A stretch of 64,000 nucleotides of DNA from the NCBI RefSeq assembly GCF_964355755.1, contig NC_092674.1, forward strand, positions 13,516,001 to 13,580,000. Reading direction: 5' to 3'. The notes under the pieces are model-generated. The model did no database searches. It saw only the letters and a list, made by a program, of their open reading frames with translations, and had not been told where the DNA came from. Both the position numbers and the translations under genes were made by a program. How positions within the stretch are numbered: position 1 is the first letter of the stretch; the number at the start of each line of letters is the position of its first letter. The DNA is from Antedon mediterranea (lineage: Eukaryota > Animalia > Echinodermata). Below, in pieces: positions 3,421-58,905 of this stretch.

Positions 3421-3424
3421 TTTA

Positions 3425-10275: not shown

Positions 10276-10327
10276 CCTATAACACTCCGACTCTCGGTGG
10301 TTATGTGGTGTGTGTGTGGCACTATTA

Positions 10328-20040: not shown

Positions 20041-20139
20041 ATTACTTAGAAGATCCAATTTAGCACCAGCCTTGAGCAAAATAGTGCAAACATCTGTGTG
20101 GCCGTTTTGTGCAGCGACATATAAAGGTGACACTCCATC
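20041..20139 (-). CDS. Internal exon encoding one ankyrin repeat (DGVSPLYVAAQNGHTDVCTILLKAGAKLDLLSN)
   Basis: 99 bp = 33 codons, open; minus-strand acceptor tttcag and donor gtaagt; phase 0-0; matches the ankyrin consensus G-x-[TS]PL-xx-AA-xx-GH-xx-V-xx-LL-xx-GA. Confidence 0.9.
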
Positions 20140-21357
20140 CTGAAACATTACAAACATGATGTTATAGTATTTTTCACTCTAAACAAAGTATTAATATTGT
20201 ACTGAAATCAATAAGATGTTATCAATTAAAAATAACGTTATGGATTCAAATAATGTTACTTTGTTAAATTAAATAAAGATTATTTACCACTGGTGTTTAC
20301 TTTAAGATAATGTATTTTATACGTATACATTTGTCTTGTTTGTATAGTATTGTTCATATAGGCCTAAGTACTAAACAAATGTAAACCAAATAAGTGTTTC
20401 TTTGCCTTTATCAGGTAGTGCTAACGAGTGAAAATTATGATAAAGTGGCGTTTGAACTGGCAGTTATGACAAAAAATATAATACTAGGATCCAAAGTCTG
20501 TTCAACTAAATACTTACTATTGGTTTTGTTTTAGAGTTACTGGGCTGGAATATTTTTTTATATTTTTTTATTTTTTTTTTTAAAGATGTTTTACTAAATC
20601 AAATTGATATATCGATTCATATCCATTTAATGTATCATTTGCATAAAATGAATAATGTAGCTCGTACAGAACAACACAATACAGAAACAGAAAAGTCACC
20701 ATTAAAAAAAAATCATTCTCTAACATTCAGTGTTCTAAAGGCAGATGTTAAAACTATTACGAAATCTATTTGCACGAGGGGTGATGGACCGCTTCTTTGA
20801 ACTTCAAAAATAGTGCATGCGATAGGTTGGGTCTTGTAAAATCGAATGTGTTTTCTTAGTAAAGTATCTAATGATTCAAATTGAGATCTGCTTGAGATCT
20901 GCTCTGCTCGTTTGAGTTCAAACGTGTCCTTTTGTGCCATTTTGATACCCTTACCCTTAATTGGTCGTGCCATTTAAGATCACAAGTGATTTACTTACAA
21001 TCTCATCTTCAGAGTGGGTACCGTATTAATTTCTTATTGTAGGTGATTTTACGTTATAAAATGTCGTCATTGTTTTCAATTGTTTTCACCTGCTTTGATA
21101 GAGACAATACTGTTAATAATTGTTTATTAGTAAACACATAGGGTACCCAAAACCAACCCAGTGTATTTGTGCACATAATAGTGTGTAACATTTGTAATTC
21201 AGAGCGTTTATTTGACACGAAAAAGCATGTGAACTCCTGAAAACGTACATAATCATAATTATAATGTAGTACATATTGATTTTTGACGTAATGATTGTTG
21301 TTGTTTTTTTAGACCACAGTAAGCGGTTGGTGTAACTTCACATTAATGATATATTGA

Positions 21358-23501
21358 TACTTGCTTGATACTTGCTTGATGTTATGGGTCGGTTAGAAAG
21401 CTAAATATAGCTTATATGACCCTTCCTGTCTTCTTATAACTCCGCGCTCCAGGTGTACACATAATGTTCCAAAGTGATTATAAATATGAAAAGGTAAACT
21501 TGCAGTCAAGGGACTTCCAATGACCATTGAGGAGTGACTTGAACAGATTTATATTTGGAGCTTTTACAATATTAGATGGTAAGTTATTCCACGAGTCCAC
21601 AACTCTACAACTGAAGGAAAACTTCCTGGAATTAAGCCTAAACTTGTTTTTATATAGCTTGTATTCATGACCTCTAGTTCCATGACAATCAACAAATGTA
21701 AAAAACTTTCTGCATTCAATAGCGTCAAGACCATTTATAATTCTGAAGATTTGGATCATATCCGCTCTTAATCGTCTGTACTCCAGTGTAGGTAAACCCA
21801 AAAACTTCAATCTATACGGATATGCCAAATGTTTTATTTCTGACAATGATTTGGTAGCTCTTCGTTGAACCGACTCGATTTTCTTAATCAGTCCAATTTG
21901 ATGAGGTGCCCAGACACAACAGTTAAATTCCAAGATAGGGCGGACTAAAGATTTGTATAGACTAAGAAACATATCCTTATCGTTGTAACAAAAAGTCCTT
22001 TTGATGAGACCCACTATTTTATTTGCCTTAGCAACACAGCAATTTATATGATAATCAAAGTTCAATTTGTGATCAAAGTATACTCCAAGATCCTTTTTTA
22101 TAGCAGTCTCTTCAATTTTAACTTTATCTTGTACATTTACAAAATACTCATTCTTCTCATTTGTTTTCCCCATATACAACATCTTGCACTTGTTGGCATT
22201 GAAAGGAGTTGCCATCTGGTCGATCAATTAAACATATTATCAAGTGAGATCTGCAATTTTTCTTTGGATTCCCTATAATCATAAACTTTAGTATCATCAG
22301 CGAACATCTTAACTTCTGATACTGCAACTTCAGGCAAGTCATTGATAAAGAGTAAGAATAAAATCGGACCAAGCACACTTCCTTGCGGAACACCACTTAT
22401 CACATCAGACCATTTCGACAGAGTCCCATTTAACATTACTCGTTGTCTTCTACCTTTTAAGAAGTCTTGAATCCAATTATAGACGCTACCGGAGATACCA
22501 TAAGCTTCAACCTTCCTTAACAGTCTCATATGAGGTACAGAATCGAAGGCCTTTTGGAAGTCTAAATATGCCACATCAATATCACGCCCATCATCTAAAA
22601 GCTTAGACCAATGTTCTACTATCTCTAATAGTTGCGTTGTTGTGGATCTACCGGACCTAAAGCCATGTTGATGTTCCGATAATAAGTTATTGTTGACAAA
22701 TTGCTTAATTAAAGAATCTCTAATAATGCTTTCCATAACTTTACAACATACAGCAGTCAAGCTAACAGGCCGATAATTATTTACTTCCACCCTGCTTCTT
22801 TTTTAAAAAATAGGTACAATAATTATGAGCTTCTTTCCAATTCCGAGGAACAATACCTTCTTTCAATGAATTAGAAAAAATTGTACTTAGCGGCTCAGAA
22901 ATATAAGCTCTGCACTCTCTTAAAATCATAGGGTGAATACCATCAGGTCCTGGACTTTTAGTCACATTTAACTTCTTTAAATATTTTTCAACGATTTGGG
23001 GTGATATTTCAACTTCAGAACAAACTGTATCAAAAACTCTTCTTTGAAACTCTGGTACGTTATCAATATCTTCCCTTACAAAAACTGTAGAGAAAAAAAG
23101 TATTAAGTATCTCAGTCTTGGACTGATCATCACTGTGTGCCACATTGTTCTCATCTTTCAGGGATGGTAGTCTCGCTTTAACCTTGGTTTTGGAGTTTAC
23201 ATATCGCTAGAATGATTTGGGTTTCTCTTTTATTTCGGAAGCAATCATTTTTTCAAAGTTCCAAATGGCCTTCCTTTTCATGGATGTTACTTTATTTCTA
23301 GCATCTTTAAATTTTGCTTTATTAGATCTGCTTGGACAATGGTTATACCTAAACCATGCTTTTGTTTTAAGCTTTATCATTTTCTTCATACCCTTGTTTA
23401 TCCAAAGAGGCTCTTTGACCTTACTGTTGTCCCCATTTTTTGCCTTGGGAATGTGTCGTCCACTAGTTTCTGCAATAATTTCATTAAACAAATTCCAACA
23501 C
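21358..23501 (-). mobile_element. 5'-truncated CR1 LINE, frameshifted ORF2
   Basis: Consecutive ORFs with KSPGPDGIHP, NYRPVSLT, QHGFRSGRS, YLDFQKAFDSVPH, GVPQGSVLGP, MFADDTK, LVRPILE, TRGHEYKL and WNNLP. 3' tail of (atcaagcaagt)n repeats; ttga at both junctions; empty site in the paralog at ~41739. Confidence 0.93.
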
Positions 23502-23591
23502 TTGAAACATCATAATGTTAATTAGTCACCTATAATATGGTCATTTGCCATATACGATGATTTAAAAATTCAGAGTTTTAATATTATAGTA

Positions 23592-23800
23592 TTACAGTTG
23601 AATCTTCGTGAGTGGTCACCTCCCTTAACGGTCGTAGTTTCAAAAGACCGTTTGTTCTTCATCTAATTAGTGGACCACCTGTAAGCAGCCATCTCATGTG
23701 AGCAGCCGAAGCAAATTTGTTTACAACACATCAGATTGTTTGTATGGTAAATTACCTCCCTTAAGCGGCCACACACAAAAATTGGCTGCAGTCGCGTGCG
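23592..23800. mobile_element. Tc1/pogo-like MITE remnant (paralog at 41828-42430)
   Basis: TA|CAGT start followed by repeated gcggccacctccc-type motifs; shared by two cassette copies. Confidence 0.45.
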
Positions 23801-24796
23801 CAAATGTTAGCTTAGTATTTACCGACCGACCAACCGACCGACCGACCGACATAGTGAGCTGTAGAGTTTGCACGCGACTAAAAATACAATTTTGATACTT
23901 ATATTGATATTTCTGTATAAAGAACATTTCTGTGTGTTTTTAGATGAGATGAGAAAACTACACAGATTTTGATTGACTGAAGAAATGATTTGCACATTTG
24001 TAGAATACCTTTTGCTCATTTAACGTCAAAACTGATCGTTTTTACATTTAACGGCGAGATGTTTGCACATTTGCGGGTAATGAATGTTTACATATTTGTA
24101 CATTTGAAGATAAAATGTTTGCACAAAATGTTGTTGTTTGCACATTTGAAGGTAAAATGTTAGCACAAATGTGGTTGTTTGCACAAACGTGACTTTTTTC
24201 ACATTTAACGGCTCCACACGGGCACTACACGGGAGAAGCCCTTGATCAATGTTAGGACCAATCAAGGTACTTTAAACAGTCATGGCTTAGTCATCACTCA
24301 GATAAATGTAAGAATAAAATGACACTGCTGCCACTACAGACGTCGTATGCATAGTCAATTAAGACTGATGTAGGCCAAAACAATAATAAAAAATGCTGTA
24401 TAAATTTAGTTACACAAATACAAATATGAAATCATGAGAAGAAACACTCGGGAATTTACCATCTTAGAATTATATTCATGGCTAATGCCTCTATGTTAAT
24501 ATTTGAAGTAATCATCGGCTATCGCAGACGCCTACATCGGATGTAGGCATAGGTGTTTACACATGTGTTGGAAAATCAAATATTCGTTAATAGATCGTAT
24601 AGATAGATAGATCGTTGTTTTCTTTGTTTTACTAAATAATGAAAATAACGATTTAATCGAGTCGTCTTTAGATTTGCAAGTAACAGAGAAGCATATATTT
24701 TGTCCATTGTCAGATGGTTATTGGATCTGTGTTGTTGATTACCCTAATACTTATAGAATTAACCGCTTTAAGTCACAGTGCATAGTAGGTATTAAC

Positions 24797-24825
24797 CAGG
24801 GAGATGTAAAATATACATCTCCCTG
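24797..24825. repeat. 29-bp palindromic insertion with near-perfect 8-bp TSD
   Basis: CAGGGAGATGTA-AAATA-TACATCTCCCTG, flanked by gtattaac / gtattaat. Confidence 0.6.
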
Positions 24826-30603: not shown

Positions 30604-30984
30604 TTCACTCAGCTGTGTTGGCATGATACTTCTATCACTGTGACCATACTTGAAATGAGTATCTTGAATAACGAAATCAGCAACAGTTGGTCCCATAGAA
30701 ATGAAAATCGGTTGCTTTTTAGTCGGCTGGAATTATATTGCTTTTACGGCCACAAAAAGTGTCAGTACTCTGGTTTTCAGTGTGAACCACAAAAACATCT
30801 ACCCTTGCGCGTGTACTTTTCGCGGAAAAATATTTGGACGTTTAGCTCAGCACATAAATTCCTGATTAAAAGTATAAATTCGCGTTACAGTGTACTACAT
30901 CGACGGTCGAAAATAACCGTTGAACAAAAGGTCATGTAGCTAGATCATTACATAATCTTCAACACGCCAGTTAATTCATAGGAC

Positions 30985-31020: not shown

Positions 31021-32105
31021 ATAGAACAAAAGAGTCTAACACAATTATCGGGTCCTGAGTTGTAGGTCCAACTTGTAAAAGAAATATAAAGTTGGTTGAG
31101 TATGTTTCAATGTTTCGGAAGCTTTACTGTACTTGTTTATCTTTAAACTGCGTCATCATTTTTTTTTTTCAGATTGAACTTAACTGATTTTAAATCAATT
31201 GGAGCTCATCAGTTATACATTATAATGATTTCAGATTTGACAAAATAATTAAAACTGATTACATTAAATGTTTTAATATTTACATAAACAATGGTACGAA
31301 GACGTAAACTTATTGTGAGCTTCTGCATTTAAATTATATTATTAAGAGGTTAATTAGGCCTATTTCAAATAACAGTTCCGAATAATTGGATGTGTTGCTT
31401 ATTCTCGAAATTGTCTTTTATTTCAAACTCACATAAACGGGCAATGAAATCTCCGTTATTAAACACATTATGTTAAGCTTATTCAGTATTATTTAATAGT
31501 ATTATTCAATTATTTATATATATATGTGTTGTTCCTTTTTCTTCTTCTTTTTACTTGATTAGATAAAACATGTTAGTGAGAAAATGCCAATATTTTAGTT
31601 AACATTTATCATCTAATGATATCATTTTAAGTAAACCCACAAATTGCACTTTTTATGTATACTTAAATAGGTTGTTATTTTCGCATATTTGTTGCTGTTA
31701 AAATAATAAATATTTCACATAAAAAAACTTTCCAAAAACAGTGGTACACAACAATGACGACAAAAAAGATGTGAAAACAAACTCTATTTTACGTTCTTGT
31801 CTGTTGGAAGAAAAGGTGCGTTATGTGCAAAGGTAAAATAAAAAAAAGATATTTCAAAACCAGTGTTACACTGTAAAAATGATTTCGGAAAAGACACAAA
31901 TAAAGCATTAATCAGCAATTATCACTGTCTACTCATTAACCAAACTACTGCACCAAACGCGCCGCAAAGCAAATATTCAATTCACAGTCATTCATTTTTT
32001 ATTTTTTTTTAAATAATGTATGTACTATGAAAACATTTCTTCTGGTTTCGATTCGTATAATGATATAAGTAGTTATTTGATAGTAAACCAATAAAACTTA
32101 CGTTG

Positions 32106-32149
32106 GCAAGACAGTTTCGTCTAGCTGTCAGCTTGACTTCTTCAGTTGC
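32106..32149 (-). ncRNA. Minimal type I hammerhead ribozyme in the Penelope terminal repeat
   Basis: Minus strand reads gcaa-CUGAAGA-a-[guc aagcugacagcua gac]-GAAAC-u-GUC-uugc: conserved core, stem I gcaa/uugc, stem II, vestigial stem III, GUC cleavage triplet. Confidence 0.75.
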
Positions 32150-33381
32150 TATGATGCATGTTGTCTCCGACTGGTCTCCTTTCCAGCCACTATATGTTTT
32201 TCTTGTGTAGCCTAGGGGACCAGTCGTCGTCAGAAGCTGATCGTAAATGTGAGATAGTTGGTGCGCGCCTTCGTCTCTATTCATCTTTGTATTTTTATTT
32301 TGCTTTCTTATGCTGATGCTTTCTTTAATTTTACGTTTAAGCCAAACTTGTTCTTTGTGTAGTACCCTGTTAGGTATGTGGTTGTGTGTGGTCATATGGT
32401 CCGTGATTGCTGATTTATGTAAAATGGAGGACGAAACTTTCCGTGATGCACGCGTCTGTATGTCCTGTGTATTTTCCTCAACATCTTTCTTGTGTTATTT
32501 AATTCTGGTTTTGAGTGCCCTACCCGTTTCCCCAATGTACACCATCTCACAGTTGGTGCAACCCACTTTGCAGACAACACCACAGGAATCCTCTTTGCAT
32601 GCTTTATCTTTCGGTCGGACGATTAAGTTTTTAATTTTGTTAGATGGTTTAAAGTATGTTCGTATGTTATATTTTTTTAATGTTCTCTTGATTTTCTCTG
32701 ACAGGCCTTGAATATATGGGATGGATATCGACCCTCTTATGTCTTCTGTTTCGGGTTGTGTGTCCGTTTTTTGTTTATCTTAGTTTACGTTGTACCTTTC
32801 TAATCGTCCATGTAGGGTAGTTACATTGTTTAAGTGAAGTATGTATCATCTTAGTTTCGTTCTGTTTGTCTGCATTATTTGTGATTATCGTGTTATATCT
32901 GTGTAGAAGTGTGCGGATAACGGATAACTTGTGTTGTAGAAGATGAAGAAACTTTAGTGTTGATGTTGCCTTCCCCATCAACTAAAATTAGCGTATCCAA
33001 GAATGGGATAGAGTTGTCTGTTAAGGACATTTCTTCGCAAGTGAAATTAATGTCATCATCGATTTTGTTTAAGTGTTGTAATAATGGTTGTGTCGCATCC
33101 TTGGGAATTATTGTTATAATGCCATCTACATACCTTTTCCATATCCTCGGTTTTATGTCGGTGTGAGCTGTAGTTATTGCCTCATTTTCCAGCCATTCCA
33201 TAAATTAATAAATTCGCAACAATCGGAGAACATGGACTACCCATGGCCATACCTGAATTTTGCTGGTAGATATCCCCTCTGAAGCTGAAATATGTGGTGG
33301 TGAGTACCAATTGAAGCAATTCCATAATGTCGTTGATATGTAACCACGTTCTCTCTGATAGTTGTTTATCACAGTGTAAGC

Positions 33382-38200: not shown

Positions 38201-38699
38201 ATATGGAGTTGGTATACCATTGGTTCTACTAAAATTATTATTACTTTTATTTGTTTGTGTAATATTTGAAGATTGCTACAAAATAGAAATAATTTAAATA
38301 TAATATATTTAACAGATTAAGTGTACGCACTATGCCTATGGAACAGATTACATTTCGGACGTAGTTTAGTATGACACATCTGATATTCTATTGTTATAAT
38401 TATTTTGTTTTATTTATTGTAATGCGCCGTGTTCTTTATATCTGGGATTGTATATTGTTTTTCAATGAGCGTGTGGAGGATTCAGGTAATTTCTCTGAGT
38501 ATTAAAGCGTAACACCGCGGCTTTAAAATGTATATTGCTTATTATAAAATATAAACCTTTTAATCAACGTTGGTAATAACCGTGCCTAATTTTAGACAGC
38601 ACTCAGGCAAAAGTTTAGTAGCTTCTTTAAAAAAAAGTTGTTCTATAAGACAATACTACAGTCTGTACGCGTGTGAAGTGGAACTAATTCGCCTTAAAA

Positions 38700-40260
38700 C
38701 TGATACGTCAAAAAGGCGAGCGGCGTTTATTGTAAGTAATATTCTAGATGAATTAATATTATCAACATGCACAAGTACCTTAAATTGAATTCTACAATGT
38801 AAAGGATTCCAATGAAAAAAAAATGGTCCTGCTCTAAAACGTAGTGACAACTCAAATACAAGTTATTTGGTAAGATCTTGCTTGAAGGTATCCATTGCTT
38901 TAAAAGACAACGAAGTAAACTATCTTTGATAACTGACTTCCCAAAGTCAATATTAACCTTGACATGGTACCGGTGTTCCGAACCATAATAATGTGAGAGG
39001 TACGACCGCCATGCAGTTATCGACAGTACAGTCATCCTCGCTACAAATTACAGTATCTATAATTTATGACCCGCATTGTGGTTGGTTTATTTACCTATAT
39101 TATAACCGGCACGCCCATTAAATTGTAAATAAATACATTTTTTTAAATCACACTGAATTATATAGCACCTGTTATTAATAATATTTGTAACACTTACATT
39201 GTTTGGAAGATCCACTTTAGCACCTGCCTTGAGCAAAATAGTGCAAACGTCTGTGTGGCCCTCTTGTGCAGCTCCATTTAAAGGTGACCATCCATCCTGA
39301 AATAATAACACACATCATGTTATAGAAGTAGTAGTATAGTCTTCTACAAAAAGCTATTTAATATTGTATTCAATATGTGATCAAGTAAAACTAGCTTAAA
39401 CGCCAGGTGAGGGCAAACAAATTCTATTGATCTTGCATTCCAATATCTATAGTTTCCCCTATGTTTCACAATGTTTGTGATTTTATGTGTGTTACACGAG
39501 CTTGTTGAAAATATGCACTTTATTATCATGGGGGATAGTTCAAATTACACAATAAAATCTCTATTTATTTGTACACAAATGTTGTTAATAGAGAGGCAAT
39601 TTAAAAAAAAACTAAAAATAAAAAGTGTGGTAAAAAATGTTATCAGAGGACTAAATATAGATAATACTTCATAGTTTTATTTTCATGCTGTAGCAAAAAG
39701 TATCCACCGTATATCCACCATCTATCCACCATCTTTTTTCACCTTCTATAGAGTCACCGGGCATGTAATTACACTGTGTTAAACTACTTAACTACTGAAA
39801 AAAGTCTTACTGGTTTTTATAGCCGAATTTTACCAAATTTTGTATTTCACCATTTTAAGGGAAATTCACTTGTTTTCGTCTTGATGTCTATTACAATTAT
39901 TTGATTTATGTACAATTTACCAGATATTATATATAAAATTCATTCCTGTACCTAAGCTTTAATTTGAATAAAGATTATTAACCTTTGATGTTTTCTTTAA
40001 GATAATGTATTGTATATGCATGCATTTGTTTTGCTTGTATACTATTTTGTTATATAGTAGGGTACTTTTGTACGTAGCATTTATATTTTGCAAATTCGGT
40101 AAGAAATTGTGGTCCTTAATATGAAAGATGGTACTAGTTCTGCTTCCAGTTATTTTGCTACAATTATCAAAGAACCTATAGATACAGTGCACTGATTGGT
40201 TAATAGAATACTGTAGTTTGATACGGTTAGTGGAATTTTGCGACGGTTGAAAACTTCAAC
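38700..40260 (+). repeat. Exon-proximal cassette block (copy at 50355-50732 plus 58782-59930, split by EnSpm; more diverged copy at 19740-20250)
   Basis: Near-identical non-coding ORFs 38727..39035 vs 50409..50672 and 39959..40192 vs 59621..59857. Confidence 0.93.
39198..39296 (-). CDS. Internal exon encoding one ankyrin repeat (DGWSPLNGAAQEGHTDVCTILLKAGAKVDLPNN)
   Basis: 99 bp, open, tttcag acceptor and gtaagt donor; lies within ORF 39087..39311; paralog of the exon at 20041-20139, including flanking intron sequence. Confidence 0.9.
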
Positions 40261-40774
40261 CTTTAAGATATTTTGTTGGAGACATTGATATACGCACTGT
40301 CATATGGAACTTTTAAAGTTAAAACAGCCCCAAATCATATTATGATAAAGTGGTGTTTGCGTTTGAACTGGCAGTTACGACTAAAAATGTATCTAGGCCT
40401 CAAAACATGTTCAGATAACACATTTTGACTGCTGAATTCTCAACTATATGTTTCATTTTGCTGTTACTGGGAGAGAGGATACGTTTAAAAAAAATGTTTT
40501 GCCAAATCAAATGAATACGTCGATTCATATCCATTTTGTGTACCATTTTAATAAAATCGTGTTGCTATGTAGGCTACATCACAATATATACAAAAACAGA
40601 AAAATCATCATTAAAAAAACCATTCCCTAATTATTTAGTACTCTAAATGGTAAAAACTATTACGAAATCTATATGTATGAGGGGTGATGGACCGCTTCCT
40701 TGAACTTAAAAAATGAGATGGGTTGGGTCTTGCAAAATAAAATGTGTTTTCTTAATAAAGTGATCTCTAATCAA

Positions 40775-40972
40775 TCAAATTGAAAGTATACGTGAAGCAT
40801 AATTAACAATACATTTGAGTTCCAACGTATCCTTACATGTGGTCCCGGTAAACCATGCAACAATGATAAAAGTGAGAATACTCTCAATGACCGATTTATA
40901 AAAATAAAAGACGTAGGCCTGATGGGAGGTTAAACTATTTAAGTCTATGCAAACAGTAAAAACGTTGAGCAC
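40775..40972 (-). mobile_element. Old L2/Rex-type LINE relic that is part of the duplicated cassette (paralogs at ~20760-20990 and ~60400-60750)
   Basis: FYKSVIESILTFIIVAWF..KCIVNYASRIL resembles the post-RT region of LINE ORF2; present at the same position relative to all three ankyrin exons. Confidence 0.6.
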
Positions 40973-43900: not shown

Positions 43901-46900
43901 AGCTGTCCCACATGTGAACGTGGCATGTACATTTGATATACATTTGAGTCAAGATATGTCATGTTTCTCTCTTTAAACGTCAAAATGAACTAATTTTTTT
44001 ATTAATTATATTGTAGAATACTATGGTATGGCTATTTAATATTATTGTGACTCAGACTGTTTAAAACTTAATGAAGAAATAGCTCATAATGTTTAATATG
44101 TTATAAATTCTGTATACACTACGATAGGACGTGACGTTATTATTATATTACAGTTGTAGACTATGTATAAATATTATAATGTACCGCGATGGTAAGACTC
44201 GCATACAAATTGATAATATTACAAGTAATAAATATTAATTCATAAAGATTAAACAAGTTATTACAAAGTTGTATTGTGACAAAACCTTTGTTAATCTGAC
44301 TTTCCAATGTCAAGATTAACCATGACGAGCCAGCGGTGTTCCGAACCATGTGATGGATACAACCGTGCAGTTCTCGACAATTTAGTCATCCTCGCCACAA
44401 AAAATGGTCTGTAATAATGACCCGCGATGAGCTTGCTTCAATTAGGTAAATTGTAAAATTCTAATAGTAACCCCCCTTCCAATAGTAACCCACCCTAAAA
44501 AACAATCAAAGAATAATAACCCAGTGTTACAATTAGAAGATTTACGGTACCGGTATATAGAGTACTGCTAACCATAATAGTAGGTAACATTTGTTTTATT
44601 TGACACGACAAAGCATGTGAACTCTCCAAAAATGTACCGTATCATAATGTAGTATATTTTAAATGTTGACATGACATAATAAACATTGAAAGTTCTTTCT
44701 AACAGAGTTTTTTCTCGTGTTATTCGGATGTTGTACTTAATTTTTGTTTTATTTATTGTAATGCGCCGTGTTCTTTATATATTTGATTGTATATTGTTTT
44801 TCAATAAGCCGTGTGGAGGATTCAGGTAATATCTCTTTAAAGGGTAACACCGCGGCTTTAAAATGTATATTACTTCTTATACAGATATTGCCTGCTTAGA
44901 GGTGAAATATAAGATTTGACAAGTGAATGATTATGTTCGAGGGAATATATATTTCCTGAAGCGTAGCACGTGAATGAACCTGTCATTTCTTCTGAAGGAT
45001 CTGTCTGAGAAGGACAATGAAACTGCAAAAAGCAGGTTAGTTTAACTAATTTTTTTTTCGAAAAGAATTAATAATTCACATGCCGTATCGTTACAATATC
45101 TCAGCGAAGCCATAGTAATTATTTCATTAACATGCATACTTGTCTAGGACAAACATCTGAAAAGAGGCCTAGAAATCAGATAGGGAAGTGGAATGTTACG
45201 GGTAGTCAATATAGCCATTATATCGTATTAATCCCTTCTGATCATTCTTAAGACTTGTTGATACATAATTGTTTACATAGACTATACCCCACTTCAAGTA
45301 TTATTAAAATATAATAATTATGACCTATCCACGTTCTATCACCATATTAAATAATTTGTCATTGTTTAAAGAAAACATTAATTAACCTACTTATCATTAT
45401 ACGTATATGCAAGTTACTTTTTGGTAACTTAAAATTAATTGTCATAAACAGGTTATTAAATGATACTGGTATGTACTTTTGTGTCTAATTTATCCAAAAC
45501 AATATCATTTAAATTATAAACTTTTAATATTAAATCATTGGACAGTTTATGTGATATGTGTAATGTACTTGCTAATTTAAAAAAAAAAGTATGAAAGCAA
45601 ACATAACAACAATGATTACTAGTTTCCCGAATAATTGTTGAATTAAACTAAAATTTGAACTCAACCATCACCGTGATGATATCGGGATATCCGCGTTAAC
45701 GCACACGGTGTAACAAACATCTTGAAATACACTCATACTCTATAAACTGAAAAAATGTATAGTGCTGAATTATGTCTCATGTGTCATATAGTACTAAGTG
45801 CGAATAACCAATAAAGTAGTGTTTTTTTTCGTAACGAAAACAATGCATTTAATTTGATATTTTTCTTGATAGTATAAAATTCAATTGTTTGGTGTATGTC
45901 ACTGTTATGAGTCCAGGTAAGCACAACTGTGACATATATTGTCTATAAACGTCTATAAATTTCAAGTCCTTTATTGTCTGACTTCGTTTTGAATGAAGTT
46001 ATAGGCCTTCAAATTCAAATGTCAAATGAATACTAATATTGGTGTCCTTTCTACATGATCTCAAGCTCTTCCGCTAGTCACCTAATCCACCAAAAATATT
46101 GGTATGTATACAGAGAGTCATGTCAGGAATAAAGAATGTAAGTCGCTTATTACGAAGATGGACCTATTTCATTATGTAACTGCTGTTGTCACTATGATGT
46201 TATTTACGTACATAATTTGTATAATTAATGTTTATCTATTGTGTAATCACTTTTGTTTTCTGATTGAACTTAACTGATTTTAAATCAATGAGAGCTCATC
46301 AGTTATATACATTATAATGATTTCAGATTTGACAAAATAATTAAAACCGATTACTTTCCGATTATCAGAAAGCTTAAATGTGTTAATATTTACATAAACA
46401 ATGGTACGAAGACGTACACCGTACTGTGAGTTTCTGCATGTAATATATACTATTAAGAGGCTAATTATGCCTATTTCAAATAACAGTTCGGAATAGTTGG
46501 ATTTTGTTGCTTATGTTTGAAATTGTCTTTTATTTCAAACTCACAAAAACGGGCAATGAAAATTTCGTTATTAAAAACATTATTTAAAGCTTATTCAGTA
46601 TAGTTAAATTATTCAATTATTCATTTATTTATATGTGTTGTTCTATTTTTTTTCTTTTTACTTGGTTAGATAAAAAATGTTAGTGATAAAATGCTAATAT
46701 TCTAGTTAACATTCTTCATTTAATGATATTCCCACAAATTGCACTGTTTATGTATACGTAAATAGGACGGTAGCTCTTTTCGTATATTTGTTGCTGTTAG
46801 GATAATAAATATTTCACTTCAAAAACTTTCCAAAAATAGTGTTACACAACAATGACAACGTTCCGCCATAAAGCAAATATTCAATTCACAGGATTTCAGT

Positions 46901-48137
46901 ACATTATTGTTTTATATTATTGTAATTCGATGTTTTCTTCATTTTTACAATTAGTAATGCCAATTATTATCCTATTGGAAAAAAGGGTTTAGTCGAGTCA
47001 ACTTTAGATCTGCAAGTGACAGAGAGAAGCTTTTCTCTTGTTCGATGTCAGGTGGTGATTGAATCTGAGTTAAAAGTTTTTAATAAATGTTTATGTCATA
47101 ATTAATCATGAATTATTCATTCGTCCTGGAAAAAAAATTACGCGTCATGTACTTAGAATTTACTTTGAAAATAATTTGCTCACGGTTGTATGGCGGCGCC
47201 CTTCCACATAACCTTTTATCCCATCCCATCCTATTGAAACTGAATTTAGACATTTTTAAATAAATTTGATTTGGTACGCTACCAATAATAATACTGTTTT
47301 AATAATACAGTAGAAAGATTTCTCGCCTAGGTAAACAAAAGAAGGGTTACTTCTTGACACTCTCAAAAGGCTTTATAGATTGTTGCTATTAATTCGGTTC
47401 GGACGTAAATGAGTTTGCAGTAAATGAATAGAAGTTTTAAAAGGAAGTTAAAGAGAGGCGTATGAATGAAGGTGAGCGAATAAGGCCTATTTGACATCTT
47501 TGTGTGTGATTGATGCGTTTATACCTATTATAGACACTGTTATATACATTCTGTAAAAGCATGTTTCATTGTTGTTGCCGACAGATCGATTATGATGTTA
47601 TGTATAATACAGGTCATGATTATTGTTATTAAAATAGGAAAATAAACTACTATCTAAATTGTGTTTGTGTTGTACCATGTTGTGTTTCAGTTACTGAACA
47701 ACATAGTTTTGCTGGTTCTGTTACTTATATATACAACAGTACTTTATAATAATATTTATTAAAATGTGTGCTTATATAGAATACAATTTTGCTTATGTAT
47801 CGCTGTTTCACATTGATCAAAGCGATTGACATTATTATTACAATGTAGTAGCAGTTAACAATATATATCTCAATTATGTATTGATTGAAATTTAAAATCA
47901 CTTCATTTTTTAATAATACGTTCATTTTAATAATGCTTTTAAACCAAAATTCCGATTTAACCAGTCTAATTTGTGCTGGAGAAAGAGCAGTTCAGAGCAC
48001 AGGATCGGCTAAATGCATGGCAATCACCTGAAACTAGTAATTGGATTGTACAGACGCCTAGTAATTGGATTGTACAGATGCCTGGTGTCATTCCCACACC
48101 GAAGTCCCTTTCTGTTAAAACCATAGGGTCTAGTAAA

Positions 48138-49040: not shown

Positions 49041-51019
49041 AAAAGGTAACATTTGTTTTATTTGACACGACAAAACATGTGAACTCCCCAAAAAATGTAC
49101 CGTATTATAATGTAGTATATTTTAAATGTTGACATGACATAATAAACATTGAAAGTTCTTTCTAACAGAGTTTTTTTCTCGGTTACTCGGATGATGTACT
49201 TAATTTTTGTTTATTTATTGTAATGCGCCGTGTTCTCTATATTTTTACATATATTGTACATTGTTTTTCAATAAACAGTGCGGAGGATTCAGGTAATTTT
49301 TCTTTAAATGGTAACACCGCGAATTTAAAATGTATATTGCTTATAAAATATAAACCCTTAAACAATATTGGTAATAACCGTTAATAATTTTAGACAGCAC
49401 TCGGGCAAAAGCTAAGTCGCTTCTTCAAAAAGAAGTTGTTTTATAAGACGATACCACAGTACAGGTGTGAAGTGGAACTAATTCGCCTTAAAATACTAGT
49501 TTAAAAAATATCATAATTAATTAACCTTTTAAAAAGCTGATAATCAGAGATATGCGCGCGTGCAATTTAACCATCTAAATGAATATTTATTTACTAAAGC
49601 TAAAATTATGTTTTCTATTAGAGAAACTTTGTTGTTATGGGAACATACTAAGTGGTTGGTGTAACTTCACACTAACGATATATTTAAACATTACATTAAT
49701 TAGTCTCCTTTACATAGACCTTTGTCATAGGCGATGATTTGAAATTCAGATAGTTTTAGTATTTATATTATGTTACTGAGGTGTAGTAGTATGCTACATG
49801 CAATGTGGATTGTTGAACATTTTAATTTATTGATGATAAAAGTATATTATTATTGTAACCGAATTTGTCATGATTTACGATGAATTTAAATCAGTTTTTC
49901 CATCATGTTATGAGGTATAGTAGTATTATATTATTATTGTAACTGAATTAACATTGTTAAAGTTTTATAGAATACTGGTAAAATATTGGTAAGTAATGTC
50001 CCACACTCCACACTAAACATTGCCATGCATTTAATACTGAACATTGTATTACATTGAAAAGTCAGAATGTTATAATGTACTTGGTATGAAATACACTTTT
50101 GTCAAATCATTTCCTGTTTTGAATCGTTGGATAGATTTAAACTATATAAAACTATTTTAACAATAATATTGTTTGTACATTATACGTATGATGTAGTAAT
50201 TCTTTGTTTGTCACTGAAAGTAATGGTAAATGTATAATTTGTAAAGTGTCCCATATCGTATGTTTGTGTTGTCAATATGCTGTTATTTACGTACCTATAG
50301 AGCAACACCTTCCCCGCGATTAAGTGTACATTTAATGAAGAAAGACTGTTACGTAAAAAAAGGCGAGCGGCGTTTATTGTAAGTAATATTTTAGATGAAT
50401 TAATATTTTCAGTACCTTAAATTGCATTCTACAATGTAAAGGATTCCAATGAAAAAAAAATGGTCCTGCTCTAAAACGTAGTGACAACTCAAATACAAGT
50501 TATTTGGTAAGATCTTGCTTGAAGGTATCCATTGCTTTAAAAGACAACGAAGTAAACTATCTTTGATAACTGACTTCCCAAAGTCAATATTAACCTTGAC
50601 AAGGCACCGGTGTTCCGAACCATAATTATGTGAGAGGTACGACCGCCATGCAGTTATCGACAGTACAGTCATCCTCGCTACAAATTACAGTATCTATAAT
50701 ATGACCCGCATTGTGGTTGGTTCATTTACCTACACAGCAAAATTCTGATTCTTGTTTTAAGAAAAAAAAAACTTGTTTCAAGCAAAATATTTCTTGAAAC
50801 AAGTAAATTTTGACTTGTCCGTATTTCAATACTTTTTGGCTTACCAAGAATCGTAAAATTCTTAACAAGAATCACACAAATTCTTATCAAGAAAATTATT
50901 CTTACCAAGAAATAATACTTTAAGAACAATATTCTTACCAAGAATTTAATTGCTTTTTTCATTCTTGTTTTAAGCAGTATCTGCCTTAAAATAAGTAACA
51001 ATTTATCGATTTTTTAAAA

Positions 51020-52830
51020 TAGAATTCTTGTTTCAAGCAATATTTTTCTTAAAATAAGTAAGAATATTCCGATTTGTATTTTTTTGAATTCTTGTTTCAA
51101 GCAATATATTTCTTAAAATAAGTAAGAATATTCCGATTTTTATTTTATAGAATTCTTGTTTCAAGCAATATATTTCTTAAAATAAATAAGAATATTCCGA
51201 TTTGTATTTTTTTGAATTCTTGTTTCAAGCAAGATATTTCTTAAAATAAGTAAGAATATTCCGATTTGTATTTTATAGAATTCTTGTTTCAAGCAATATA
51301 TTTCTTAAAATAAGTAAGAATATTCCGATTTGTATTTTTTTGAATTCTTGTTTCAAGCAAGATATTTCTTAAAATAAGTAAGAATATTCCGATTTTTATT
51401 TTTTGAATTCTTGTTTCAAGCAATATTTTTCTTAAAATAAGTAAGAATATTCCGATTTGTATTTTTTGAATTCTTGTTTCAAGCAATATTTTTCTTAAAA
51501 TAAGTAAGAATATTCCGATTTGTATTTTTTGAATTCTTGTTTCAAGCAATTTTTTTCTTAAAATAAGTAAGAATATTCCGATTTGTATTTTTTGAATTCT
51601 TGTTTCAAGCAAAATATTTCTTAAAATAAGTAAGAATATTCCGATTTTTATTTGTAGAATTCTTGTTTCAAGCAATATTTTTCTTAAAATAAGTAAGAAT
51701 ATTCCGATTTGTATTTTTTAGAATTCTTGTTTTAAGCAATATTTTTCTTAAAATAAGTAAGAATATTCCGATTTTTAATTTTAATATTCTTGTTTCAAGC
51801 AATATATTTCTTAAAATAAGTAAGAATATTCCGATTTGTATTTTTTGAATTCTTGTTTCAAGCAATATTTTTCTTAAAATAAGTAAGAATATTCCGATTT
51901 GTATTTTATAGAATTCTTGTTTCAAGCAATATATTTCTTAAAATAAGTAAGAATATTCCGATTTGTATTTTTTTGAATTCTTGTTTCAAGCAAGATATTT
52001 CTTAAAATAAGTAAGAATATTCCGATTTTTATTTTTTGAATTCTTGTTTCAAGCAATATTTTTCTTAAAATAAGTAAGAATATTCCGATTTGTATTTTTT
52101 GAATTCTTGTTTCAAGCAATATTTTTCTTAAAATAAGTAAGAATATTCCGATTTGTATTTTTTGAATTCTTGTTTCAAGCAAAATATTTCTTAAAATAAG
52201 TAAGAATATTCCGATTTTTATTTGTAGAATTCTTGTTTCAAGCAATATTTTTCTTAAAATAAGTAAGAATATTCCGATTTGTATTTTTTAGAATTCTTGT
52301 TTTAAGCAATATTTTTCTTAAAATAAGTAAGAATATTCCGATTTTTAATTTTAATATTCTTGTTTCAAGCAATATATTTCTTAAAATAAGTAAGAATATC
52401 CGATTTGTATTTTTTGAATTCTTGTTTCAAGCAATATTTTTCTTAAAATAAGTAAGAATATTCCGATTTGTATTTTTTGAATTCTTGTTTCAAGCAATAT
52501 TTTTCTTAAAATAAGTAAGAATATTCCGATTTGTATTTTTTGAATTCTTGTTTCAAGCAATATATTTCTTAAAATAAGTAAGAATATTCCGATTTTTATT
52601 TGTAGAATTCTTGTTTCAAGCAATATTTTTCTTAAAATAAGTAAAAATATTCCGGTTTGTATTTTTTAGAATTCTTGTTTTAAGCAATATTTTTCTTAAA
52701 ATAAGTAAGAATATTCCGATTTATATTTTTAGTTTTCTTGTTTCAAGCAATATATTTCTTAAAATAAGTAAGATCCGATTTTTATTTGTAGAATTCTTGT
52801 TTCAAGCAAAACTTTTTTTTAAATAAGTAA
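51020..52830. repeat. Tandem array of 63-bp units (about 28 copies)
   Basis: Unit ttcttgtttcaagcaatatttttcttaaaataagtaagaatattccgatttgtattttttgaa; 21-aa periodicity in the spurious ORFs. Confidence 0.95.
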
Positions 52831-53266
52831 ACAAGAAGTCTATCAAATAAAAACCAGTAAATGTTTACTTATTTTAAGAAAAGTATTGCTTGAAACAAGA
52901 ATTCTATCAAATTAAAATTCGTAAATTCTTACTTATATTGGGAAAAAAATTGCTTGAAACAAGAATTCTATAAAATATAAATCATTAAAAATTTATTTTA
53001 AGAACGATAAATGAATACTCATTTTAAGTAATAGTTTACTTAAACAAATAAATTCAAGAATGTTATAAAACATAATATTAACAATACTGTTATTTTCATT
53101 AAGAACTACAATTTACATGACATTAGGTACAATAATATATACAACTTCTTTAAAACAAACTTGTTTTTATTAATAATAAAATGCCATCAAAAGAAAACTT
53201 AAAAACATTAAAATGGTAAAATACAAATTTCGTAAAATTCTTCTCCCGCACCTGGGCTTTAAACTA

Positions 53267-55393
53267 TTAGGTGTCTTTAAATTTATTAATGTATACTAAT
53301 GATGATTCAACAGCCTTTGTCAAGTGTACAGGTGTGTTTTCATCACAAATCACTAACTGTTAAAGGATAGTGAGGCCTACTTCTTTTCATTTTGGATAAT
53401 CGAAATCCAGAAGGTAAAAAGTGGAGAGGAGAGTAACTAGAGCCTCATCTAATTTTGCTTTCTTTGTAGTTAGAATTGTTTGCTAAACTTTAATGTAGGC
53501 CATTTCTGTGTCCAAAAGCAATACCGGCATATTACCTGAACGGCGTGAAGACCAGGATTCTGGATCTTTATTCATGTTCCTAAAAATGAAAAGAGATTAA
53601 TATAGTTTTAGTTATTACTGTATTTAAAATATGTGTAACATCATCAACTAATTGGGTACGGTGTGGTTTTAGAGTCCTATATCTGGGGCGGTAAACACAA
53701 AAACATGACGCAATATTAGAACGGTGGTAAGAATAATTTTACATTATAAGACATAAGGGTGGGTGGAATATGCATTTGAACTTTTTAATCACAAACTTTG
53801 CCCTGTTTATACCGATCCCAAAGACAGGCCTGGCTGTATCTATTATTTTTAGTTAAATTATTAGGGTCTAAATTTATTTTTAATATTACTATTTAGGAAG
53901 ACAATACGCAAAACGGTGCTCAATCCTGATTGATGTTTTTATTCCGTATCAATGTTTATAATAACAATCATACAATTAAATGTAAATTTTGTTTAATTGT
54001 TTGATTTTAATAAATTATTGTAAACATAGTATATACCTCGAATTTTAAGCTAAGATAAATTTGATTTTAAAAAAACACTTTAAGATATTTTTTTTTAATG
54101 TACATAATGTTACTTGTATTTTAAATTTTAAAAAACACTAAATACCTTCAAGGTCGGCAGACTTTTTTTGATGAGTTTTTCCCAACAAATATGTTTGACA
54201 GATTTGACAACATATGGGTTATCTTTGAACCTAACCAAAAATAACAAATTGAAAACATTATATTATATAAATTTATTTAAATGAGTGGAATAATGTATGG
54301 ACATAAACTTGATATACTGTAGCTCAAATTTTAAATAATGTAGCCTACAGTTTTGTAGGTGGTCAATGTAAAAGGAAGGGGAAAGGGTGGGCTGGCCAGG
54401 AGAGCAATAATATGTCAAAAATTAATATTCATAAGTCATTTATTTAATTTTAGTTGTCAAAGGGAGGAGTGCATGACACTAGCTTGAGTCGAACCAAGCT
54501 GTTAAAAATACGTACACAATATGTACACGTATTTTCCTCACTACCATTGGTCCATTATAAAATTAAAACTATTTATGAATAGATAAAAGTACAAAAACAT
54601 ACACTGTACTTACCAGATGGAGGACTGGTGTTTCTCTTTAAAATACCAAAATAAACTATATTATTCTCTTCTTTGGAAAAATTTGCTAAGAACTTTTTTA
54701 AAAAGCTTTCTTTTGTATTTCATTCCTCTTTGCCTAGTAATAATTAGTATCCTTCGAACTTCTTCAATTACCTAACAAATAATTTAAGATATTGTAAATA
54801 ACACAGTTTTTTAAAAAGAAATTTAATATAACAATTTTAGTTATGCAGTACGTATGTTTTTTGTTTGTTTTTTTAGTATGTTTTTTTTAAATTTAGAGTT
54901 AAAAACATAAAGTTTCAATATCGATGTGATCACTTCGGGGATTACTTAGTGTGTACAATTAATTAAATATAAAGAAGTGTTTTTAAATGTCATTATATTT
55001 CTCATTGGAATATGTGTATATAATACAGTATAATCCTTCGTAGATATTTCATGGCTACATTACAAAATAACTGTTACATTATAATTGTATTATCTATTAT
55101 TAGGCCTTCCTTATACCTAGCTGAAATAGGTCCGACAATATTTGTCCCCTCTGTCAATGTCTGAACTAAAATGCTAAGCTAAACCTATACACCTGTCCGT
55201 CAGTACAGGCATAGTAGGCTAGCCTAGACCTACTAGTTCCAGGCCTACAGTATTACTAACTAGGAAGGAGCCTAGGCTAGGCCTAGACTGCTGGCAGATT
55301 AAAATATAATTATTAGGCCTACGAACCTGTTAAAATGTTGGCCACTTCTTCATCTATTTCTCGGATCTTCAACAAAGCGTCTTCCTTCGACAT
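53267..55393 (-). pseudogene. Multi-exon EnSpm accessory (second) gene, degenerate
   Basis: First exon MSKEDALLKIREIDEEVANILT|gt (55327-55393); last exon ..LDEALVTLLSTFYLLDFDYPK*KEVGLTIL*QLV.. with stops, resembling the FYxFxLxYP C-terminal motif of animal EnSpm accessory proteins. Confidence 0.55.
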
Positions 55394-55789
55394 TATATTA
55401 GACTAATCTTACTAGGCCTATTGAAGCATTTAATATATAAATTGCGATGAAAGGTGTCTTTTACTTACAAACTCTAGATTTTGAATGATTACTTTAAAAA
55501 ACCGTTGGCCATGATCCCGCCGGGAGCTAGGTCATCGACCACACACAGTGTTGTTTTTCAACTATAACCAAAAATTTATCGCTGGCCTTTTACCCAGAAT
55601 GTATAAGGTCATTATACTGCTCAACGTTAAAGCATGGAGGTATAAACCTCCATGGTGGTTAAAGCAAATCTGTAAAACGTCTGGACCAACAGTAATACGA
55701 CAGACAATAATAATGACACATGTTTGTTGCAGTCCGAAAAAAAGCGATAAGTTTGTGCCAGTAAACTGAAGTAGGTACAGTATTTGCTA

Positions 55790-56726
55790 CCCTATTTGCT
55801 AAGGCATTATAATTCAATTCATGGAAATACTCCGAATTTTCGAGTAACATGTGGAATTGGTGGTTCGCTGCCCGGCAAGCTTTGGAATTTACAATTCGTT
55901 TTACAAGCATGTCATAAGACGCCATTTTAAGGACGAGTATAACAATCGGCAACCTCCTGCAGTTGACGATGGAAACATCAGTAATAAGTATGCCTGGAGA
56001 AAACGAGGATGCCAATTGAGGATGAAGTAGAACTAGGCCTAGACTAGGAGACTGACGAAGTTAATGAAGAAAAAAACTATTATAACGGGGATGATTTATC
56101 AACTGACGATAGTAGTAGTGATAATTCTAGTATTGTTATACTGTTAATGATTGAAATAATATTAATTATCTTGTTGATGCTCAGCAAGAAGGCCTACTAA
56201 CTAGAGGATGAACAAGCAGATAATAGTATAAAAAATGCTGATTTCTTTCTACTAAAATTAAAGGAGAGAAACAAGATTCCACAGGTAAGCCATTTTGCTT
56301 TAAAATTACAACAATTATGCATTTTAAACTATTTTTTATTAGAGAAATACGTCTATTTCCTAGGCCTTGCTGGTACTGTTATATACAGGACTATTAGCTA
56401 TAGTAACTATAGGACTTGGGTACTAGGCCTAGGCCTAGGCATTATACACTCTAAGTTTATGTTGCATTTTTTTGTGACCAATTTCATTGTTACAAATAAC
56501 ATTTTTTTTGTTAGGCTGCATAGCTCCCCAACTAAAGCACAACTTAGTTTTTAAACATATTAAAACTTGAATATAAAAAATATTAAATCAATATTATTTT
56601 CTTTAGGCCTAGGTGGTTGCAGTGCAATCGATTATTCAAAGCACAAACAGTTTGATTACCCAGATTCTTTCAGTTGAAACTGAAGTGCTAACTGCTCTAC
56701 CGTTGTGTGAATATAAGGATATTGAC
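55790..56726 (+). pseudogene. N-terminal relic of EnSpm transposase (C2H2 fingers, acidic linker, helical motif); catalytic part deleted
   Basis: YLLRHYNSIHGNTPNFRVTCGIGG(frameshift)CPASFGIYNSFYKHVIRRH, then FFLLKLKERNKIPQ|gtaagc, spliced to VVAVQSIIQSTNSLI; sequence then runs directly into the right satellite. Confidence 0.65.
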
Positions 56727-58000
56727 AATCTATTTTAAGTAAAACATTTCTCAAAATAAGTATTTTTAAGAATATTAAAATAGAATTGACTTCAATTCAA
56801 GCAAAAATAGTCTTGATAGGATATAGTATGATATTGACTTCTTATCTTAAGTAAAACATTTCTCAAAATAAGTATTTTTAAAAATATTGCGAATCTCAAT
56901 TTAAGCAAAAATAGTCTTGATAAGATAGTATGATATTGACTTCTTATTTTAAGTAAAACATTTCTCAAAATAAGTATTTTAAAGAATATTGCGAATCTTG
57001 ATTCAAGTAAAAATAGTCTTGATAAGATAGTATGATATTGACTTCTTATTTTAAGTAAAACATTTCTCAAAATCAGAATATTGCGAATCTGAATTCAAGC
57101 AAAAATAGTCTTGATAGGATAGTATGATATTGACTTCTTATTTTAAGTAAAACATTTTTCAAAATAAGTATTTTTTAAAATATTGCGAATCTCAATTTAA
57201 GCAAAAATAGTCTTGATAAGATAGTATGATATTGACTTCTTATTTTAAGTAAAACATTTCTCGAAATAAGTATTTTTAAGAATATTGCGAATCTTGATTC
57301 AAGTAAAAATAGTCTTGATAAGATAGTATGATATTGACTTCTTATTTTAAGTAAAACATTTCTCAAAATAAGTATTTTTAAAAATATTGCGAATCTCAAT
57401 TTAAGCAAAAATAGTCTTGATAAGATAGTATGATATTGACTTCTTATTTTAAGTAAAACATTTCTCAAAATAAGTATTTTAAAGAATATTGCGAATCTTG
57501 ATTCAAGTAAAAATAGTCTTGATAAGATAGTATGATATTGACTTCTTATTTTAAGTAAAACATTTCTCAAAATCAGAATATTGCGAATCTGAATTCAAGC
57601 AAAAATAGTCTTGATAGGATAGTATGATATTGACTTCTTATTTTAAGTAAAACATTTTTCAAAATAAGTATTTTTTAAAATATTGCGAATCTCAATTTAA
57701 GCAAAAATAGTCTTGATAAGATAGTATGATATTGACTTCTTATTTTAAGTAAAACATTTCTCGAAATAAGTATTTTTAAGAATATTGCGAATCTTGATTC
57801 AAGTAAAAATAGTCTTGATAAGATAGTATGATATTGACTTCTTATTTTAAGTAAAACATTTCTCAAAATAAGTATTTTTAAAAATATTGCGAATCTCAAT
57901 TTAAGCAAAAATAGTCTTGATAAGATAGTATGATATTGACTTCTTATTTTAAGTAAAACATTTCTCAAAATAAGTATTTTTAAGAATATTGCGAAACCTA
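56720..58000. repeat. Tandem array of 102-bp units (about 12 copies), decaying into larger degenerate units up to ~58740
   Basis: attgcgaatc recurs at 102-bp spacing; 34-aa periodicity in the spurious ORFs; 500-bp higher-order duplication (57175 vs 57675). Confidence 0.95.
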
Positions 58001-58846
58001 ATTTAAGAAACTTTGTCTTACCTAGAAAAATATTTATTGTTTTAAGTAATTTTTAGAATTCATCAATCTTAATTTAAGAAAAATTATTCTTGATAGGGAT
58101 AAATATAATATTGATTTCTTATTTTAAGTAAAATACTTTTCAAATTAAGTATTTTCAAATCTTGTTTTAAGCAAAACTATTCTTAATAAGAAGAGAATGA
58201 TATTGACTTCTTATTTTAAGTAAAATATTTCTTGTAATAAGCATTTTCAAGAATATTGCGAATCTTGATTCAAGTAAAAATAATCTTGATAAGGGTAGTG
58301 TGAAATTGACTTCTTATTTTAAGTAAAATATTTCTCAAAACAAGTATTTTCAAGACTATTGCGAAACCTAATTTAAGAAACTTTGTCTTACCTAGAAAAA
58401 TATTGATTGTTTTAAGTAATTTTTATAATTCATCAATCTTGATTTAAGAAAAATTATTCTTGATAGGGATAAATATAATATAGATTTCTTATTTTAAGTA
58501 AAATACTTTTCAAATTAAGTATTTTCAAATCTTGTTTTAAGCAAAACTATTCTTAATAAGAAGAGAATGATATTGACTTCTTATTTTAAGTAAAATATTT
58601 CTTGTAATAAGCATTTTCAAGAATATTGCAAAACTTAATTTAAGAAAATGTGTCTTTTCTAGAAAATTATTTCTTGTTTTAAGTAATTTTAAATCTTGAC
58701 AAGAAAAAAAATACTTATTTTAAGAATTTTTTCTTAAAACAAGATTTTTTTTTCTTGCTTAGAATTTCAAATTTTGCTGTGTATATTATTACCTATATTA
58801 TTACCGGCACGCCCATTAAATTGTAAATAAAACATTTTTTTAAATC

Positions 58847-58905
58847 ATAGTGCAAACGACTGTGTGGCCCTTTTCTGCAGCCGTATTTAAAGGTGACCAT
58901 CCATT
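58847..58905 (-). pseudogene. Truncated ankyrin pseudo-exon (NGWSPLNTAAEKGHTVVCT then MI*)
   Basis: Acceptor tttcag intact. Comparison with 39150-39240 shows a deletion that removes the 3' part of the exon and its donor; read-through hits TAA. Confidence 0.8.

Follow-up and report, generated by a model that had tools for sequence, protein, structure and literature searches.

Single-repeat ankyrin cassettes in a feather star as candidate front-end exons of a death-domain ROCO family

Invertebrates lack antibodies, and by what means they nevertheless obtain varied receptors has long been asked; for most animal ROCO proteins, to our knowledge, no role is known. We examine here a 64,000-nucleotide stretch of the feather star Antedon mediterranea (contig NC_092674.1, positions 13,516,001 to 13,580,000 of assembly GCF_964355755.1; hereafter the window), which carries three minus-strand exons that each encode one ankyrin repeat. 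A preliminary description, made from the letters alone, took them for interchangeable cassettes of a diversified receptor. Which gene do such exons serve, are they spliced, and do their differences indicate a varied binding surface? The reading we lean towards, with moderate confidence, is that they are front-end cassettes of a feather-star ROCO sensor, whose surface is varied by duplication, loss and exchange of exons together with change at the contact codons.

Cassette exons, their gene family and their joining

The two intact exons, named here by their first positions (Table 1), are recognized by the Pfam Ank profile with E = 2.1e-7 (20041-20139) and E = 2.3e-7 (39198-39296), and both are bounded by a TTTCAG acceptor and a GTAAGT donor. 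The third copy, at 58847, is truncated. A family-specific profile run over the window finds these three exons and no fourth. The preliminary description had them as paralogous phase-0 exons in duplicated intron DNA, and frames, splice flanks, Pfam and self-blastn all bear this out. The 39198 unit was recently duplicated to give the 58847 unit and that copy then died, while the 20041 unit goes back further.

A 45-residue profile of the two exons and their flanks matched 152 proteins among 193 candidates, the closest being A. mediterranea models on one 31.9-Mb contig. Among 279 proteins, five A. mediterranea models have 24-28 of 33 residues identical to a window exon, and the best other protein has 21. 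The likeness runs past the exon borders. Three A. mediterranea models start with six residues encoded by the same acceptor flank as that of exon 20041, and in one of these, P0015, the start agrees with the window at 34 of 39 residues, the six included. Exon 39198 agrees at 27 of 33 residues with the third ankyrin exon of P0043, and its donor flank matches the intron read-through with which one further model, P0039, ends.

Three of the five cassette-bearing relatives (P0015, P0047 and P0131) join their cassettes to a Roc domain. P0131 (XP_071950759.1, 1376 residues) consists of two cassettes, a cap, a Death domain, Roc (E = 1.2e-7, with a P-loop at 308 and WDFGG at 484), COR-A (E = 3e-15) and a further three Death domains; P0015 combines three cassettes with a cap and Roc, and P0039 and P0043 each have an N-terminal cap and two cassettes. 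At least five Roc-COR models on the contig of P0131 are 95-97% identical to it. The family reaches other Antedon contigs and Anneissia japonica, with distant look-alikes in other invertebrates; a profile search of representatives brought up mainly lengthy, generic ankyrin proteins, with no further cassette from crinoids. Because no non-cassette family exon lies in the window, the link of its exons to Roc is drawn from these relatives, according to which the host gene is very likely a ROCO gene with death domains, one of the options that had been offered beforehand.

The other kind of host that had been offered does not hold up. It is very improbable that the cassettes serve an NLR-type receptor (NACHT or NB-ARC) or a kinase as its sensor: fungal ankyrin NLRs with near-identical repeats are known (PMC13449251), but neither NACHT nor NB-ARC is found in any of the five relatives, and a kinase domain is likewise absent from P0131, P0047, P0015, P0039 and P0043, which are fragmentary models. 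Variation in the rest of the architecture is also seen. One subfamily has a Death domain ahead of Roc and the other cleanly lacks it (P0015 versus P0047), as if this were a further optional module. Other partner domains, among them zf-TAZ and KIX (of a CBP-like gene), DED and PF00791, occur in P0124, P0288 and P0296 of A. mediterranea and P0287 of Anneissia, which suggests that domains have been widely shuffled in the crinoid ROCO family or that models are chimeric.

Nine sequencing runs under three organism labels cover part of 38700-41600, and none holds more than 52% of its words, so that no run is likely to be of the same haplotype as the window. Contigs placed at 80% likeness over 39000-39500 number 349 in run X1, 127 in X5, 159 in X6 and 15 in X9, and over 20031-20149 there are 117 in X1, 50 in X5 and 52 in X7; summed contig depth is not taken as copy number or expression, and one consensus loose end with an agreement of 0.69 was disregarded. 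Related cassettes with these flanks are numerous in the runs, under three species labels. One contig of X5 differs from 39267-39370 at 2 places, so that another sample also has a unit of this kind.

In run X5 cassette ends are joined to the starts of following cassettes (4 rows in one table and 2 in another); in these joints, on the minus strand, ends reading YDK, (Q/K)DK, (Q/K)AK or N lead into starts reading D-G, N-G or K-G. A loose end in the same run, GADVNLQAN, corresponds to the cap exon at the N terminus of P0039, here joined to a cassette, and the nine last letters of that exon precede both Asn-start and Asp-start cassettes. Runs X1, X6, X9 and X7 have no cassette-to-cassette joint, and in X1, X6 and X7 the letters of a donor-site intron follow the cassette ends. 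From its joints and the cap junction, X5 is probably RNA in which cassettes of the family are spliced in series. The view of the three exons as cassettes of a multi-copy, spliced family is supported. Another X5 loose end, at 39206, has a cassette ending in E-N that runs on into EIDCIEN, possibly another alternative exon; the full reading ENEIDCIEN is absent from the window, even with up to 3 mismatches allowed, and from the relatives inspected.

RefSeq isoforms X1 and X2 of one gene (P0039 and P0043, the isoform numbers being separate from those of the runs) have the cap and first cassette in common and differ in the next, which is the last. Might diversity then come mainly from splicing, each transcript picking two or three exons of a long array between fixed caps, much as in Dscam? 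This isoform pair would fit, as would the cap-end letters found joined to both kinds of cassette start, models with only 2-3 cassettes set against 117 run-X1 contigs on the exon, and introns of 12-19 kb. With at least five near-identical Roc-COR models on one contig, though, the joints could come from many genes or alleles; the two isoforms run into intron-like sequence at their ends and could be artefacts of annotation; and contigs cannot phase the exons, so that paralogues could also explain the isoform difference. We consider splicing as the main source rather unlikely, and it would not exclude the ROCO cassette reading that we prefer.

Under that preferred reading cassettes should also pass between genes. 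P0015 and P0131 agree at 53 of 66 cassette residues (80%), at 56% in the cap and at 30 of 81 (37%) at the start of Roc, a contrast between cassette and Roc that suggests exchange between subfamilies. In the tree, P0015 groups with Anneissia P0289 (99/98), the repeats of which match the window exons at only 4-15 of 33 residues, and a single Antedon clade is rejected (approximately unbiased (AU) test, p = 0.002, 81 columns). The first tree leaves out P0284, P0053 and P0298, which have no P-loop match, and the second also P0301, P0047 and P0135. Most simply, a single cassette type would have spread over old subfamilies within the Antedon line. For cassette gain and loss, as earlier supposed, and for exchange there is evidence in the recent duplication, the truncated copy and the sharing between subfamilies, exchange being the one that we infer.

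Variation at the contact codons

Between exons 20041 and 39198 there are 13 nucleotide differences, of which 11 lie in amino-acid-changing codons (3, 7, 8, 12, 28, 31 and 32), and codons 16 and 24 are the purely synonymous ones; the recount agrees with the preliminary description. It agrees also on codon 8, which reads GTC, GGA and ACG over the three copies, on codon 12 (AAC, GAG and AAG), and on the pair of 39198 and the truncated copy, where all 7 differences are in amino-acid-changing codons (1, 8, 11, 12 and 16).

That second pair is the young one, and in it the exon has 7 differences in 59 bases compared to 53 in 1336 aligned intron bases over three blocks (Fisher p = 0.011), with 6 of the 7 in codons 1, 8, 11 and 12. 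A comparison of exon with flanking intron had been suggested as a check, and in the young pair it gives an excess in the exon. Two things are above chance: the concentration of changes in contact codons, and in the young pair the larger divergence of exon than of intron. In the two intact exons the reading frame, the length and the splice sites are preserved, whereas the surrounding introns have diverged by about 15% and carry many indels; the non-synonymous proportion (pN) between the exons is 0.034 outside codons 3, 7, 8, 11, 12, 31 and 33. The young pair, the only one to do so among the three DNA copies, suggests positive selection at the binding codons.

Ankyrin contact positions 2, 3, 5, 13, 14 and 33 presumably correspond to exon codons 33, 1, 3, 11, 12 and 31, a mapping made through the designed ankyrin repeat protein (DARPin) consensus. 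Its spacing agrees with positions in PMC10484509, and by PMC1261162 these six positions are the randomized contact sites and the most variable ones in ankyrins generally. Diversity was measured on 13 cassettes, 3 from the window and 10 others from A. mediterranea, some of them near-duplicates. It is 0.60 at the six DARPin positions and 0.36 at 13 other generally variable positions (p = 0.048), and codons 3, 8, 11, 12, 31 and 32 have 4-7 residues each. The outer helix is at 0.27, compared to 0.84 in 238 unrelated ankyrin repeats. The mean pairwise difference is 0.29, which agrees with fungal NLRs with conserved repeats, where repeats are about 70% or more alike apart from hypervariable positions. 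Subclasses by codon 7 occur both in the window and among the other A. mediterranea cassettes; in the Asn subclass codon 8 is G, T, R and L in the 4 of 4 copies, and in another, where codon 7 is H, C or R, codon 11 is I, N, S or R.

Several findings speak against taking the cassettes as the selected surface of a ROCO sensor. By the Nei-Gojobori count the intact pair has a pN of 0.119 and a synonymous proportion (pS) of 0.170, for a pN/pS of 0.70, below 1; and since 75.5 of the 99 exon sites are non-synonymous, giving a neutral expectation of about 10 of 13, the 11 of 13 in amino-acid-changing codons is no excess alone. The young-pair test has only 7 changes, one of its exons is dead, and conversion from another cassette would mimic its signal. 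Including codon 8 in the diversity comparison gives p = 0.011, with that codon chosen after inspection of the data. Among 139 unrelated repeat sets, the surface bias is present in every one of the 25 most homogeneous, and in about half of these it is as strong. On the side of the gene, the 64-kb window contains no Roc, COR, Death or cap exon; at 20116 all the X5 depth carries another letter than the window; that X5 is probably RNA is a guess from its joints; and for exchange the alignment has 81 columns, the tree contains a long branch, the genes are predicted models, and the grouping was put to the test once a first tree had been seen. The variation is located on the ankyrin binding face, as had been claimed, but a bias of this kind is generic to homogenized ankyrin arrays. 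The surface pattern fits a diversified binder, yet is not unique to one.

Another view takes the locus as a recently homogenized ankyrin array in a ROCO gene, with a purifying core, a relaxed exposed face and patchy gene conversion, and with neither selection for diversity nor a special immune role. Such an array would have pN below pS in the intact pair, would vary most at the positions that vary in ankyrins generally (PMC1261162, in part), would resemble all 25 homogeneous controls, and could well have one dead copy in three. It would not so readily leave the outer helix, equally exposed, nearly frozen (0.27 versus 0.84) next to contact codons with 4-7 residues, nor make the young exons diverge more than their introns (p = 0.011). 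The controls may themselves be diversified sensors, because internal repeat conservation is, by the available part of PMC13449251, rare and enriched in NLR-like proteins. We regard the homogenized array as unlikely, though a serious competitor to the selected ROCO cassette.

Duplicated introns and the rest of the window

The window is AT-rich DNA of animal type, and transposon remains make up most of it. Its cassette units and neighboring features are listed in Table 1.

Table 1. Cassette exons, their intron flanks and associated features of the window
Feature	Position	Strand	Remarks
Intact single-ankyrin cassette exon, Tyr-codon-7 subclass	20041..20139	-	99 bp, phase 0, open frame, AG/GT flanks
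Intact single-ankyrin cassette exon, Asn-codon-7 subclass	39198..39296	-	99 bp, phase 0, open frame, AG/GT flanks
Truncated cassette	58847..58905	-	Acceptor and initial 59 bp present; remaining 40 bp and donor lost by deletion; immediate stop
Intron flanks of cassette 20041	19726..21287	-	Homologous to the 39198 flanks, about 15-17% substitutions (self-blastn, pairwise counts)
Intron flanks of cassette 39198	38696..40263	-	Recent duplicate with the 58847 unit, 4.0% substitutions
Donor-side flank of truncated cassette	50342..50732	-	94% to 38696-39097; displaced 8 kb by insertion; resumes at 58783
Acceptor-side flank of truncated cassette	58906..59928	-	90-94% blastn identity to 39238-40263
Insertion with terminal inverted repeats and TA target duplication	50733..58781	.	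8,049 bp; ends compared with the empty site
Probable fourth unit, exon lost	44286..44456	-	Donor-side flank adjoining far acceptor-side homology; alternatively a dispersed repeat
17-codon AG-flanked segment ending in stop	30609..30662	-	Matches last exon of A. mediterranea isoform X2 (P0043)

In the truncated copy, blastn blocks 39091-39150 and 39238-39816 abut at 58847, the point of deletion. The spacing of about 19 kb between cassettes stands as to position, but its evenness is chance, because the insertion came later, into the donor flank of the young copy, and so lengthens the second gap. The inverted arms of the insertion are tandem arrays of 63 bp (about 30 copies) and 102 bp (at least 12 copies), with no recognizable transposase, and we take it to be a foldback-like DNA element. 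The divergence of the cassette flanks is about that of other duplicated intron blocks (14-17%); not being more conserved than these, the flanks offer no indication that a selector or recombination signal is conserved in them.

The probable fourth unit is 73% identical to 38924-39105 and is followed by 44556-44881, which matches 60890-61245 (blastn); the family profile gives no ankyrin signal between these flanks. Further intron blocks, 2685-5278 and 14529-15554 versus 43749-48109 and 62853-64000, are 86-98% identical, which suggests more duplicated units, one of them at the low end of the window and without a visible exon. Are the cassettes then orphans of segmental duplication, silent and at most supplying sequence to active genes by conversion? 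A broken copy, a unit apparently devoid of its exon, the lack of any other family exon within 20 kb downstream and the absence of the precise 20041 variant from X5, as judged at 20116, speak for this. Silence would hardly preserve the frame, length and splice sites of the intact exons across about 15% intron difference, however, or hold pN to 0.034 away from the variable codons, and the X5 contig with 2 differences over 39267-39370 argues the same way. We judge this explanation distinctly improbable, and retain working ROCO cassettes as the preferred one.

The 17-codon segment agrees with P0043 at 16 of 18 residues by tblastn (E = 2e-4), with acceptor and frame present, and is a possible short alternative end or a repeat fragment; it is not used as proof of orthology, because a microsatellite adjoins it and it may be a repeat. 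Sixteen further open frames in the window match no Pfam family at cut-off. On the plus strand, 5633-8068 encodes reverse transcriptase in one unbroken frame of 811 codons (Pfam RVT_1, E = 5.5e-32) and is probably a young non-LTR (long terminal repeat) retrotransposon, and 9109-12973 has broken frames with a Tesmin/TSO1-like CXC domain at the end (E = 7.3e-6), probably a decayed DNA transposon. On the minus strand, a frameshifted non-LTR retrotransposon at 21478-23509 (RVT_1, E = 1.1e-27), presumably CR1-like, lies within the intron upstream of exon 20041, and 32009-33510 holds decayed, presumably Penelope-like retroelement frames with weak RVT_1 only.

Known systems, proposed mechanism and significance

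Closest in design are the LRR (leucine-rich repeat)-ROCO genes of Ectocarpus (PMC3341825, PMC11378527), which likewise encode Roc-COR proteins with one repeat per same-phase exon, keep dead cassettes in introns and vary at the binding face, function being predicted in both; they exchange cassettes within and between genes, as is suggested here. There, the cassettes are 72-bp phase-2 LRRs and here 99-bp phase-0 ankyrins; here the organism is an animal, Death domains flank Roc-COR, no inverted cassettes are seen, and diversifying selection is putative. The DAPK1 group (PMC6320773) shares ankyrin repeats, Roc-COR and a C-terminal Death domain, a likeness of domain order, whereas the crinoid relatives lack the kinase, have up to four Death domains (one before Roc), are multi-copy, and carry near-identical ankyrin cassettes. 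Fungal NLRs such as Podospora HNWD and NACHT-ANK (PMC13449251) have near-identical repeats with few hypervariable contact positions, and an exchange between diverged genes such as is suggested here, but use a NACHT or NB-ARC ATPase in place of the Roc GTPase, and it is here that each repeat has its exon between 12-19-kb introns. Arthropod Dscam (PMC11378527) also has tandem duplicated exons in a recognition domain, comparable to the two annotated isoforms that differ in one cassette; cassettes here are also joined in series in a protein predicted to be cytosolic, and mutually exclusive choice would be hypothetical here.

Uncharacterized ankyrin-Roc-COR-Death proteins with the same domain order are found in Branchiostoma (P0053), a soft coral (P0301) and Anneissia (P0282 and P0289). 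Atlas clusters of such invertebrate proteins score 0.94-0.99, and an Atlas search with P0047 stayed below 0.9. The two Anneissia proteins are of the same family as the Antedon models, at 33-50% identity, and as their ankyrin repeats are mutually diverged, homogenized cassettes look restricted to the Antedon line. Judged on defining domains, the feather-star genes are probably ROCO and belong to none of the other systems compared.

As we picture it, caps would enclose a variable stack of exon-encoded ankyrins in a cytosolic ROCO sensor, with the window exons presumably spliced to a Roc-COR body beyond the window. Unequal crossing-over or conversion in the long, repeat-rich introns could add, remove or patch cassettes and leave the frame unchanged, and selection would favor new binding residues at the contact codons. 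By analogy, the stacked ankyrins are predicted to bind a foreign or damage-linked protein and Roc-COR to switch or dimerize with GTP, and the Death domains might recruit adaptors for cell death or immune signaling. A variable immune sensor, a role proposed beforehand together with allorecognition, would suit the pattern. A bolder and quite tentative idea, which we rate as doubtful, is that of a natural DARPin library, a germ-line-swapped and alternatively spliced pool of exons, shared and combined at will, for death-domain ROCO sensors; a deuterostome would then have a diversified cytosolic receptor that is neither TLR, NLR nor immunoglobulin.

Among the papers surveyed, by title and opening of the abstract and with few subscription journals represented, none describes ankyrin-cassette ROCO genes of animals, and passages of PMC5135030, PMC8195603, PMC9334734 and PMC12314368 do not describe the gene type. 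The locus offers a concrete test case, with one locus cluster, a chromosome-scale relative, and variable codons that are those randomized in engineered ankyrin binders. If the reading is true, the exon-cassette design of brown algae would recur in an animal, on a different repeat and wired to Death domains.

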